Source: Dictyostelium discoideum
Lineage: Eukaryota
Assembly: GCA_000004695.1 (NCBI GenBank)
Contig: CM000152.2
Location: 1,952,001-2,016,000, forward strand
DNA length: 64,000 bases
Direction: 5' to 3'
The notes under the pieces were generated by a model, which was given only the letters and a program-made list of their open reading frames with translations, did no database searches and had not been told where the DNA came from. Positions 36,781 to 40,433 of this stretch are shown piece by piece (within the stretch, counting starts at the first letter, position 1; every line of letters starts with the position of its first letter). Both the position numbers and the translations under genes were made by a program.

Positions 36781-39105
36781 TTATTTTTTTTTTAAAAAAA
36801 AACTTACAATATGAGCAATATCAGTAATTTTAAAATTTTTAAAAATTGTAAATTGACTTGAAGTTGTTTTAATATTTTTGTTTAATAATGGATATTGATG
36901 ATAATTTTCAATTGTTAAATAAATATTTTCACTTGAAAGTATTAAAGATCTTGGAACAATATTTCTACCAGATACTTTATGATGAAGCATAATATATTTT
37001 AAGAATTCTTCATTTGGATTAACTAAAAGGGCATTGATAACTTGTTTAGTTTCTATTGCTCTTGAGTAAGGTTCCAAAGGTAAAGAAAGTGATTTAGTGA
37101 TTGTGAATAATAATTTTAAGAATTTCTCTGAACATTCTTGAGAACGTTTAATGAAAACATAACATTGATCATCCATTTCAATTCTAAACAATTGAGAAGA
37201 CAAACCAACACTAACTCTCCTAATCTCTGATAATGGCAGAATCGTTTGAATTGAGAATCTATTTGAAGAGGTGTCATCCACCATTGAAGTGGATGATTTC
37301 TTCTCTTTTAGTAGATAACAAGTTGTTGAAGATAAAAGTAAAAATATTTGCTTCTCCTCCTCCAATAGGGAGGACAACGATGATGAGGAAGTTGCAGATG
37401 TGTAACGAACGAAATTGGATTTCATAATGTATTGATAAACCTCCTTTGAACCACCTTTGAATACCTTTAATTTAAAATATAATTGCAAACTTTGGTCTTT
37501 GAATATACGGTCATTGAATTCGTCATCATTGTATTCTATAAAGTTTTTCATGTCCCTGAGAGAGAGCGAATTTGAGAAAGAGGACGCAGAGGGTGGCGAC
37601 TCGACCACCATGATCGACCTATCGGTCGTGGTGGGCAAGTAGAACAACCCCTTGGAATTGCATTTTATACAATGTGTGAAATCATGCTCAGACTTGCAAA
37701 CATATCTCTCTGAACAGTCCATACAATTCATAGTGTACTCTCTATACAATGGTGGTACCAATGTTGTCAATAGTTGATGTAACGATTGCTGATCCTCCAT
37801 TTGATAATATTCACGAGAGAATGCAATTGGTACACCATTTTTAAAATCGGTTGCAAATACAATCTCTGCAGTATTTGGTTCAACGGCATCTGGTACTGAA
37901 AATACAAATACAATATCTTTCAATAGATAAGAATTCACAGAATGTCCAAATAAATTACTCTCTAAAATTGTATCAATCTTTATTTGTAATAATAAATTTT
38001 GACTATTCTTTATAACTGAAAATGGTTCACAAATTAATTCACTTGATATAATATTACCATTTGTATTTGGTGATTTTGATAATAATGATTTTGATAATAA
38101 TGATGTTGATATTGGTGTTGTTGAATTTGGTGTTGTTGAAATTGGTGTTGTTGATGTTGATTTATTTTTATTATTATTATTATTTATATTAATTGCTTCT
38201 GTTGTTGTTGTTGTTGATGATGATGAAGATGTTGTTGTATTTGATGATGTAGATGAATTTGCAGGTGATACTACATTTGTTGTTGTTGTTACATTTGAAG
38301 TTGTATCTGTTGGTTGTGGTGGTGGTGATATTACATTTAATTTTAATGGTGATGTTTCATTATTATTATTATTATTATTATTATTATTATTATTATTATT
38401 ATTATTATTATTATTATTATTATTATTATTATTATTATTATTATTATTATTATTATTACTATTATTATTTGAAGTATTATGATATATATTCTTTTTCTTC
38501 ATTGGTGATTTAATTGGTGTTTTTTGTAATTTAACAGGTGATGATAAATTATTATTATTATTTTCATTATATTCTGGTATTGGATGATTATTCTCTTTAA
38601 AAGTTGACATTTCATTTAAAACCAATAACCAAGAATTACCACCTTCAGAACGTAAATCATCAATTTTCTTTTTTAAATTCTTTTCTTCTTCAAATTTATC
38701 ATCTTGTACTTGATTCTCTGTAACTTCAGAATCATAATCTGGTAAATTATCAATAACTGGTTCAATTACACCATGATTAAAATTTGGATGATGATGTTTA
38801 TGTGTATCTTTCTTTCTTTTTCCATTCATTGTCATTGTTGTTGTAGTTGTAGTAGTTGTAGTTGTTCTTCCATTTATTATACTTTGATTATTATCATTAC
38901 TAATTAATTCACCATCAATTCTAGCATTTGGTGCAAATTCAACTACTAAAGGAACGATATCTTTTTTTGATTTTGGTGGTTTAACTGGTTTAATTGGTGA
39001 TTTATATGATTTAAATGAACCATTATCATGTGTATGTTTTTTTATAAATTCAATTTCATATTCACTAATCCTTTTACCATCTAAATAAAATTCTCTTAAT
39101 AAATA
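36781..39105 (-). CDS. LRR protein exon 4 (775 aa): Asn/Thr/Ser-rich linker, CxxC...CxxC module, C-terminal globular region
   Basis: A10G acceptor. The 11xLys start of the raw ORF is poly-A read-through. Confidence 0.6.
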   Translation of the reverse strand, partial: YLLREFYLDGKRISEYEIEFIKKHTHDNGSFKSYKSPIKPVKPPKSKKDIVPLVVEFAPNARIDGELISNDNNQSIINGRTTTTTTTTTTMTMNGKRKKDTHKHHHPNFNHGVIEPVIDNLPDYDSEVTENQVQDDKFEEEKNLKKKIDDLRSEGGNSWLLVLNEMSTFKENNHPIPEYNENNNNNLSSPVKLQKTPIKSPMKKKNIYHNTSNNNSNNNNNNNNNNNNNNNNNNNNNNNNNNNNNNNNNETSPLKLNVISPPPQPTDTTSNVTTTTNVVSPANSSTSSNTTTSSSSSTTTTTEAININNNNNKNKSTSTTPISTTPNSTTPISTSLLSKSLLSKSPNTNGNIISSELICEPFSVIKNSQNLLLQIKIDTILESNLFGHSVNSYLLKDIVFVFSVPDAVEPNTAEIVFATDFKNGVPIAFSREYYQMEDQQSLHQLLTTLVPPLYREYTMNCMDCSERYVCKSEHDFTHCIKCNSKGLFYLPTTTDRSIMVVESPPSASSFSNSLSLRDMKNFIEYNDDEFNDRIFKDQSLQLYFKLKVFKGGSKEVYQYIMKSNFVRYTSATSSSSLSSLLEEEKQIFLLLSSTTCYLLKEKKSSTSMVDDTSSNRFSIQTILPLSEIRRVSVGLSSQLFRIEMDDQCYVFIKRSQECSEKFLKLLFTITKSLSLPLEPYSRAIETKQVINALLVNPNEEFLKYIMLHHKVSGRNIVPRSLILSSENIYLTIENYHQYPLLNKNIKTTSSQFTIFKNFKITDIAHIVSFFLKKK

Positions 39106-39210
39106 CTTTTTTTTTTTTTTTTTTTTTTTTTTTTTCAAAATAAAAAATAAATTTATAAGTATATATATTAATATTTATATATATATATATACAAATATAT
39201 TAATACATAC

Positions 39211-39597
39211 AATAATATTATCACTATTTAAAAAGTTTGAAATTATAATATTTCTATAATCTTTTAAATCACAAAATGGATTTTCATCAATAAATAAATA
39301 TTGTAAATTTGGTAATGTATTTAATTTGAAAATCTCTTGAATATCTTTAATGTTATTCTTACTAATATCTAAACATTCCAAAGCATATAATCTATTTAAA
39401 GATTCAACTCTTTCAATTTGATTACCTCTTAATGATAAATGTGTAATCATACCCAATTCTTGATTTATATTCTCCATATCTTTAATCATATTAAATGATA
39501 AATTTAAAGTTCTTAAAAATAAACATTCTTGTAAATTATTAACTTTACTAATTAAATTACCTTCAAAACATAATTTTTCAATTGATAATAATGAATA
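39211..39597 (-). CDS. LRR protein exon 3 (LRRs: LNLSFNMIKDMENI, LSLRGNQIERVESL, LDISKNNIKDIQEI)
   Basis: TAATAG acceptor. GTATGT donor. Frame verified against ORF 39175..39489. Confidence 0.65.
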
Positions 39598-39695
39598 CTA
39601 TTATTATAAAATAATAATAATAATAATAATAATTATATATATTAATAATTATATATATTAAGGAAATAATAATAAAATAATAAAAGTATACTTAC

Positions 39696-40085
39696 AGCAG
39701 ATTGATCAATTTCAGGTATACTATTAAATGATAAATCTAATTCTTTTAATTTTAACCAAATTTTATTTTTTTTATATAAATATTGGAATCGTTTATTTGA
39801 TAATTCTTGTTGTGATAATGGTTGACCATCTTCATGTTGTTCAAATACTATTGAACCAATTGATTGATAATATGGTAATCTAACTTCATCCTCTACAATC
39901 AATAATTCATCCAATGAATTTAATGAACCACTAACTGTCAATTGTTCAATATTTTGTGATAATTCAAATAAATTTGTAATTAATCCTGGTTTAACATATG
40001 AAATCTCTAAAAATTTAATTGAATCAAATAATTTTAAATTTAAATCTCTATTCTTTTCTAATAATCCTTGTTCATTTGGATCAAT
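39696..40085 (-). CDS. LRR protein exon 2
   Basis: TATATAG acceptor. GTAAGT donor. LRR periodicity (LxxLxLSxNxI). Confidence 0.6.
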
Positions 40086-40199
40086 CTATATATATATATA
40101 TTTATATATATAAAAATATATATATATATTTTTTTTTTTTTTAGTAATTTGATGTGATGATTTGATTTGTATAGATATATATAGATATTAAATAATTAC

Positions 40200-40433
40200 T
40201 CTTAAATGTTTAATTAAAGAAATTATAAATTGTAAATCTAATAATTCACTCTTTGATATTTTAAATGAAATTCTTTTACCATTTAAATATAAATTTAATT
40301 GTTCAATACAAATTGGATTCAATGTTAAACATGTATTTCCACTCTTTAAATCTTTTTCATTTGATTTTATAAAATCATTTAATGTTATTAATAATTCATC
40401 TGAATCATGAAATTGTTTCTCTTTTTCTTTCAT
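40200..40433 (-). CDS. LRR protein (STK11IP-like architecture) exon 1
   Basis: ATG. GTAATT donor. Confidence 0.55.

Follow-up and report, generated by a model that had tools for sequence, protein, structure and literature searches.

Introduction

STK11IP is a poorly understood protein that has been linked to LKB1, to SMAD4, to the lysosomal protein TMEM192, and to mTORC1 control of the V-ATPase, accounts that fit poorly together. The kinases CaMKK and LKB1 both act upstream of AMPK. Here, we describe a gene in a 64,000-nucleotide stretch of Dictyostelium discoideum DNA (hereafter the window: GenBank assembly GCA_000004695.1, contig CM000152.2, positions 1,952,001 to 2,016,000 of the forward strand) whose product has an STK11IP-type layout, together with a kinase gene that lies some 10 kb away. 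It is likely that the gene encodes the D. discoideum member of the STK11IP/nischarin scaffold family and that its linkage to the kinase gene is coincidental. D. discoideum is a haploid phagocyte that is amenable to genetics and in which the endolysosomal and V-ATPase system is prominent, so a homolog there would allow direct tests of the core function of STK11IP.

Mammalian STK11IP is found on lysosomes because its residues 1-600 bind the membrane protein TMEM192; its C-terminal, PH-containing half does not localize alone (bioRxiv 10.1101/2021.08.27.457973). Residues 360-770 bind V1 subunits of the V-ATPase under mTORC1 phosphorylation control, and mammalian cells that lack STK11IP have higher V-ATPase activity and more autophagy (PMC8976005). 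Of the properties ascribed to the family, LKB1 binding is the one least firmly established: LKB1 was not recovered with STK11IP in either of two mammalian proteomic studies (bioRxiv 10.1101/2021.08.27.457973; PMC8976005). The homology of the C-terminal region of SKIP/PLEKHM2 was noted in 2011 (PMC3240744). Searching the literature on Dictyostelium for STK11IP, nischarin, or TMEM192 yielded no relevant result, and we found no paper on a Dictyostelium homolog of STK11IP or nischarin.

Results and Discussion

The Gene Has Five Exons and Encodes 1,164 Residues

With its exons joined in frame, the STK11IP-family gene is real and spliced. Its coding region (36545-40433, minus strand) runs from an ATG at 40433 to a TAA stop at the end of the last of five exons (40433-40200, 40085-39696, 39597-39211, 39105-36808, and 36730-36545); every intron is GT..AG and of phase 0, and the product is 1,164 amino acids (aa) long. 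The region is AT-rich and intron-containing, of Dictyostelium type. A preliminary description of this DNA had placed a four-exon gene at 36781-40433. A spliced gene does lie there, but it has five exons and ends at 36545. Position 36781 is a stop codon within intron 4 (donor GTAAGT, from 36807), and exon 5 codes for the final 61 residues, which belong to the last PH domain.

Two proteins agree with this model in start, splice junctions, and end. One is the annotated D. discoideum protein P0158 (1,146 aa), which differs from the 1,164-aa model by a few substitutions and by changes of repeat length in the linker; the other is the D. citrinum protein P0001, which is 95% identical to the product. 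In an exact look-up in the protein collection, neither the 1,164-aa product nor the 695-aa product of the neighboring kinase gene was present.

The Product Is Collinear with Animal STK11IP

The layout of the protein is STK11IP-type and PX-less: a helical cap, six leucine-rich repeats (LRRs), a linker, a first PH domain (PH1), a four-cysteine motif, a helical segment, and two further PH domains (PH2 and PH3). Every module is homologous to a module of animal STK11IP (PH1 probably so), the order is collinear, and the folds are those set out below. The preliminary description had pointed to an STK11IP-like order of elements from the letters of the sequence; the LRRs, the linker, the CxxC...CxxC module, and the folded C-terminal region were all found, and they correspond domain by domain to abalone and mammalian STK11IP. 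Three Pfam models score above threshold in the Dictyostelium protein (LRR_4, PH_PLEKHM2, and PH_S11IP_C), and family alignments were built for the C-terminal region (A1) and for the N-terminal half (A2). Since Pfam models already touch the protein, it is a member of a known family and no new kind of system. What is new here is a set of small additions, namely a corrected gene model with exon 5, the CaMKK identity of the neighboring kinase, and a four-cysteine motif that runs from amoeba to mammal in STK11IP-type proteins and is absent from nischarin.

An exhaustive HMMER run over 1.84 billion representatives recovered full-length collinear homologs. A word-indexed search, capped at 8,000 candidates, returned no match with the C-terminal 479 aa and only six proteins with alignment A1, the cap apparently being swamped by low-complexity words. 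The dictyostelid homologs are Cavenderia DFA_05598, Heterostelium PPL_10804, a Synstelium protein, and two Acytostelium paralogs; beyond dictyostelids, we recovered the Amoebozoa Soliformovum and Mastigamoeba, the CRuMs flagellate Diphylleia, and metagenomic eukaryotes. The uncharacterized orthologs of Cavenderia, Heterostelium, Acytostelium, Soliformovum, Mastigamoeba, and Diphylleia are 31-49% identical to the Dictyostelium protein and have the same cap, LRRs, cysteine motif (missing from Diphylleia and some metagenomic members), and PH modules; protist orthologs are annotated merely as hypothetical or LRR-containing. From animals, the search recovered one bona fide STK11IP, that of the abalone Haliotis (Pfam LIP1, PH_S11IP, PH_PLEKHM2, and PH_S11IP_C), and one bona fide nischarin with PX and PH_NISCH_C. 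No PX-containing nischarin was found among the dictyostelid matches. Mammalian STK11IPs were gathered with a human STK11IP query, which returned macaque STK11IP at 96% identity.

The N-terminal helical cap (aa 12-145; 39885-40400, minus strand, spanning intron 1) is LIP1-like. It begins 11 residues after the protein start, with no PX domain ahead of it, and AlphaFold2 (AF2) models most of it at a predicted local distance difference test (pLDDT) score of 85-97. The Pfam LIP1 model (PF15904) gave no match to aa 1-188 even at E <= 10, although it does match Haliotis STK11IP (41.8 bits) and mammalian STK11IP (117-120 bits). A cap profile built from 13 protist sequences (aa 12-142) aligned with residues 16-161 of Haliotis STK11IP in hhalign (95.5%, E 1.5e-8), and equally well (95.7%) with residues 123-254 of nischarin, downstream of the nischarin PX domain. 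Pfam detected no PX domain anywhere in the Dictyostelium product.

The cap is followed by six SDS22-type LRRs with a C-terminal cap (aa 188-335; 39217-39758, minus strand, spanning intron 2), recognizable by six matches to LxxLxLxxNxL and by Pfam LRR_4 (38.7 bits, E 1e-9). Their best sequence match in the PDB is the LRR domain of human nischarin (8esf; 80.9 bits, E 5e-22). The AF2 model of aa 1-400 has a pLDDT of 83 and a predicted template modeling score (pTM) of 0.81, and Foldseek placed it closest to the same nischarin structure (E 1.9e-18, template modeling score 0.66 over 360 columns, 24% identity), with the SDS22/PP1 holoenzyme 6obp ranked second (E 6.4e-10). In alignment A2, the N-terminal half is collinear with abalone and mammalian STK11IP without rearrangement, and residues G32, L46, and W188, the asparagines of the LRRs, and two motifs (NP..YR and LDG) are invariant between the Dictyostelium protein and the STK11IPs.

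Between the two folded halves lies a low-complexity linker of about 330 aa (aa ~365-690; 38047-39024, minus strand) that is probably disordered. Asparagine, threonine, and serine make up 158 of the 345 residues at aa 346-690 (76 N, 43 T, and 39 S), an (AAT)37 tract at 38359-38469 codes for linker poly-asparagine, and the start of the linker (aa 364-400) is modeled at a pLDDT below 50. The poly-asparagine and nearby threonine and serine runs differ in length between D. discoideum strains (1,164 versus 1,146 aa for the whole protein), and the D. cf. discoideum protein has 1,199 aa.

The C-terminal region, aa 686-1164, is folded, with a mean AF2 pLDDT of 78.5 and a pTM of 0.60. The model contains three PH-like beta-sandwiches, each closed by a helix (about 699-786, 894-1009, and 1038-1154); a beta-hairpin element at ~795-827 bears the cysteines, and a short helical segment precedes PH2. 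PH1 (aa 699-786; 37759-38022, minus strand) is probably equivalent to Pfam PH_S11IP (PF25357). That Pfam model has no direct match in the Dictyostelium protein, and the assignment comes from the modeled sandwich and helix and from hhalign, in which the protist profile of the PH1 region matched residues 617-743 of Haliotis STK11IP, called as PH_S11IP by Pfam (97.5%, E 6.9e-12). PH2 (aa ~894-1009; 37090-37437, minus strand) is PLEKHM2/SKIP-like, with PH_PLEKHM2 (PF23142) scoring 37.3-39.2 bits over aa 874-1010 against a cut-off of 22. PH3 (aa ~1038-1154; 36578-37005, minus strand) is the STK11IP C-terminal PH domain; it spans intron 4, requires exon 5, and is modeled at a pLDDT of about 90. PH_S11IP_C (PF25624) scores 27-29.7 bits over aa 1043-1160, above its cut-off of 22, and PH_NISCH_C (PF25625) scores 24.9-26.4 bits, below its cut-off of 27. 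The preliminary description would have given up its STK11IP comparison had profile searches pointed to another family with no STK11IP signal; the signal is there, in a model above its cut-off.

The four-cysteine motif, C798-x2-C801 ... C816-x2-C819 (37660-37725, minus strand), lies between PH1 and PH2 and reads NCMDCSERYVCKSEHDFTHCIKC at aa 797-819. It is probably a zinc ribbon. C798, C801, C816, and C819 are nearly invariant across alignment A1, and a fifth cysteine, C807, is confined to dictyostelids. Five mammalian STK11IPs (CLRCGHEF...CPNC) and Haliotis STK11IP carry a cysteine motif at the equivalent place, after PH_S11IP and before PH_PLEKHM2; it is absent from both nischarins examined. 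No Pfam model matches the motif in the STK11IPs examined. In the Mastigamoeba protein P0057, the motif (aa 736-765) gave a sub-threshold match to Pfam DUF7129 (24.4 bits; cut-off 30), perhaps the closest model now available for this element. The motif offers a concrete target for mutagenesis.

Set beside animal STK11IP, the Dictyostelium protein thus has the same PX-less LIP1-type cap, SDS22-type LRRs ending in NP..YR and LDG, long disordered acidic or low-complexity linker, (probable) PH1, CxxC...CxxC, PH2, and PH3. It differs in that identity is only 22-23% over the N-terminal half, that 14 residues separate the two cysteine pairs versus 31-41 in animals, and that the linker is rich in asparagine, threonine, and serine, with no recognizable counterpart of the mTORC1 site S404. 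Nischarin (PDB 8esf; fish P0148 and P0159) provides the solved structure nearest to the cap and LRRs and has homologous PH2 and PH3 domains, but it carries an N-terminal PX domain, and the cysteine motif and a detectable PH1 are missing from the two nischarins examined. PLEKHM2/SKIP shares the PH module only and has a RUN domain and kinesin-binding motifs in place of the cap and LRRs.

The Protein May Predate the Split between STK11IP and Nischarin

A hidden Markov model (HMM) built from protist C-terminal regions only spanned the whole of the corresponding region in the STK11IPs of Haliotis (165 bits) and of mammals (42-61 bits). In nischarin, the same HMM covered only PH2 and PH3 (73-78 bits). 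A bona fide nischarin, P0148, is recognized by Pfam through PX (50.7 bits) and PH_NISCH_C (181.9 bits). A nischarin signal is present in the Dictyostelium protein as well because STK11IP and nischarin are sister families.

Several observations weigh against our overall reading of the protein. First, the LIP1 and PH1 modules were identified by profile-to-sequence hhalign with a single abalone STK11IP, direct Pfam LIP1 and PH_S11IP matches being absent. Second, PH_NISCH_C scores nearly equal those of PH_S11IP_C, and nischarin outscores mammalian STK11IP on PH2-PH3; with the scores this close, sequence similarity alone fails to separate the two animal paralogs. Third, a neighbor-joining tree joins animal STK11IP and nischarin against the protists in 35 of 50 bootstraps, a rough tree of 656 columns that should not be leaned on heavily. 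On this grouping, the Dictyostelium protein may be a co-ortholog that predates the STK11IP/nischarin split and has kept the STK11IP-type layout, rather than a strict STK11IP ortholog. Finally, the functional part of our reading is drawn wholly by analogy, and the linker has no detectable sequence conservation with the V-ATPase-binding segment of mammalian STK11IP.

These same similarities raise the question of whether the protein works as a nischarin, that is, as an early-endosome effector that binds small GTPases or kinases of the Rac, PAK, and LIMK type through its LRR and C-terminal regions. The LRR half is closest to nischarin in both sequence and fold, the PH_NISCH_C score and the protist profile on PH2-PH3 point the same way, and, if the animal paralogs came by duplication, their ancestor may have held both roles. 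We nevertheless regard a nischarin function as improbable: the PX domain is absent and the protein opens directly with the LIP1-like cap, PH_NISCH_C stays under its cut-off, and PH1 and the cysteine motif have counterparts in STK11IP (for PH1, a probable one), neither of which turned up in the two nischarins examined.

For an STK11IP-type member of the family, we tentatively suggest a role as a peripheral endolysosomal scaffold with a specific lysosomal mechanism, a proposal modeled on mammalian STK11IP. A membrane protein (TMEM192 in mammals) would serve as the docking site for the cap and LRR half, and the disordered linker would be the site of regulatory phosphorylation and of contact with the V-ATPase. 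The triple-PH module might bind lipids or proteins weakly, make a second contact of low affinity, or act in autoinhibition of the kind proposed for SKIP/PLEKHM2, and the cysteine motif could stiffen this module.

It is possible, though rather less likely than not, that the STK11IP-type layout is ancestral. The ancestor shared by Amoebozoa, CRuMs, and animals would then already have possessed it, and nischarin would have branched off later, within animals, acquiring PX and losing both PH1 and the cysteine motif. If this is true, Dictyostelium would provide a single-copy genetic model for the core lysosomal function of STK11IP. A more speculative extension of this reading is that the ancestral protein scaffolded kinases upstream of AMPK, both LKB1 and CaMKK, and that the kinase linkage described below is a remnant of that role.

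The Neighboring Kinase Is CaMKK-Type and Its Linkage Is Not Conserved

The preliminary description had drawn attention to an LKB1-like kinase 11 kb away. The kinase gene in question, which lies outside the STK11IP-family gene (23813-25989, plus strand; exons 23813-24493 and 24583-25989; 695 aa), is by its catalytic-domain sequence CaMKK-type rather than LKB1. In a phmmer search against the PDB, the catalytic domain scored 249.3 bits to CaMKK2 and 231.4 bits to CaMKK1, versus 149-153 bits to STK11, a score to STK11 that is no better than those to AMPK, MARK, and Snf1. The Dictyostelium kinome has one CAMKK-family kinase and a separate LKB-subfamily kinase (PMC1420674). We also considered and rejected an LKB1 gene elsewhere in the window. 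The sole other kinase signal is a second kinase gene at 7766-9164 (minus strand), whose N-terminal exon is Aurora-like. The kinase signals in the window are therefore CaMKK-type and Aurora-like, with no LKB1 among them, and, the neighbor being CaMKK-type, no link to LKB1 can be read from the locus.

The kinase and STK11IP-like genes are convergent, with 10.5 kb between their 3' ends. The interval holds six genes, which encode a CBS-domain protein, a Ser/Thr-rich secreted protein, an adaptor protein (AP) sigma subunit, an asparaginase, and two tandem metallophosphoesterases. The gene order in D. citrinum is as in the window, and its 10 kb flank ends just before the expected kinase site. Within 10 kb on either side of the orthologs in C. 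fasciculata, H. album, and A. subglobosum (both paralogs), there are no kinase genes, and a kinase-domain tblastn over all five loci gave no match. In Acytostelium, the downstream flank is rearranged and has no kinase, and the upstream side with Utp14 is kept. With the kinase absent near the other dictyostelid orthologs, the linkage is restricted at most to close relatives of D. discoideum.

Could the two genes nonetheless form a functional pair, in which the scaffold positions an AMPK-upstream kinase (LKB1 or CaMKK) and the linkage reflects co-regulation? CaMKK and LKB1 do share that place in the pathway, and the chance of a gene falling within 11 kb of either of two named kinases is ~0.1% in a 34 Mb genome, a rough estimate rather than a computed value. 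However, the kinase is CaMKK-type and not LKB1, and no interaction of STK11IP with CaMKK was found in the literature examined; the mammalian proteomic studies cited above missed even LKB1. The genes are separated by six others and are convergent, not divergently transcribed. The orthologs in Cavenderia, Heterostelium, and Acytostelium (both paralogs) have no kinase within 10 kb, even though Acytostelium keeps the Utp14 side, and the idea itself arose after both genes had been seen in one window. We therefore give a functional pair very little credence. With a CaMKK homolog, six intervening genes, and no conservation of the linkage, the 10.5 kb proximity reads as a coincidence without functional meaning. 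The preliminary description had been cautious on this point, allowing that the proximity might be chance, and the comparison with other dictyostelids that it proposed bears out the caution: the kinase linkage is not conserved.

It is also very improbable that the protein is simply an LRR regulator of the SDS22 kind, such as one acting on PP1, to which an unrelated tail is attached. That reading draws on SDS22 (PPP1R7) being among the better PDB matches to the LRR block (56-59 bits; Foldseek E about 1e-9), but we rejected it because nischarin is better by eight orders of magnitude in fold E-value, with the cap covered too, and because the C-terminal 480 aa are a family-specific triple-PH module.

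Other Features of the Locus and Its Counterparts

The CBS-domain gene (35447-36114, minus strand) is small, has two exons, and lies ~430 bp downstream of the STK11IP-like stop on the same strand; the arrangement is likewise found in D. citrinum. The asparaginase gene (31573-32613) is identical to DDB_G0279357 of strain AX4. The two calcineurin-like metallophosphoesterase genes (27031-27885 and 29908-30777, plus strand) are closely similar, apparently a recent local duplication, and the pair is also present in D. citrinum.

Orthologous loci in other dictyostelids show further features. A. subglobosum has two paralogs (P0003 and P0006) at unlinked loci (L004 and L005), and the other dictyostelids examined have one. 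The H. album ortholog (L003, 10001-19661) is annotated as 2,214 aa over 9.7 kb; the family match is limited to the first ~1,185 residues, so the gene model is probably fused with a downstream gene. In Cavenderia fasciculata, a gene for the V-ATPase catalytic A subunit (L001, 20633-22735) lies ~6 kb downstream of the ortholog, and mammalian STK11IP binds ATP6V1A; this neighbor was not seen in the other species, so its position is probably due to chance. The order Utp14, one gene, STK11IP-like gene is common to Dictyostelium and Acytostelium (48906-51371, minus strand, in the window; 1-2248 in L002; 2041-5457 in L004).

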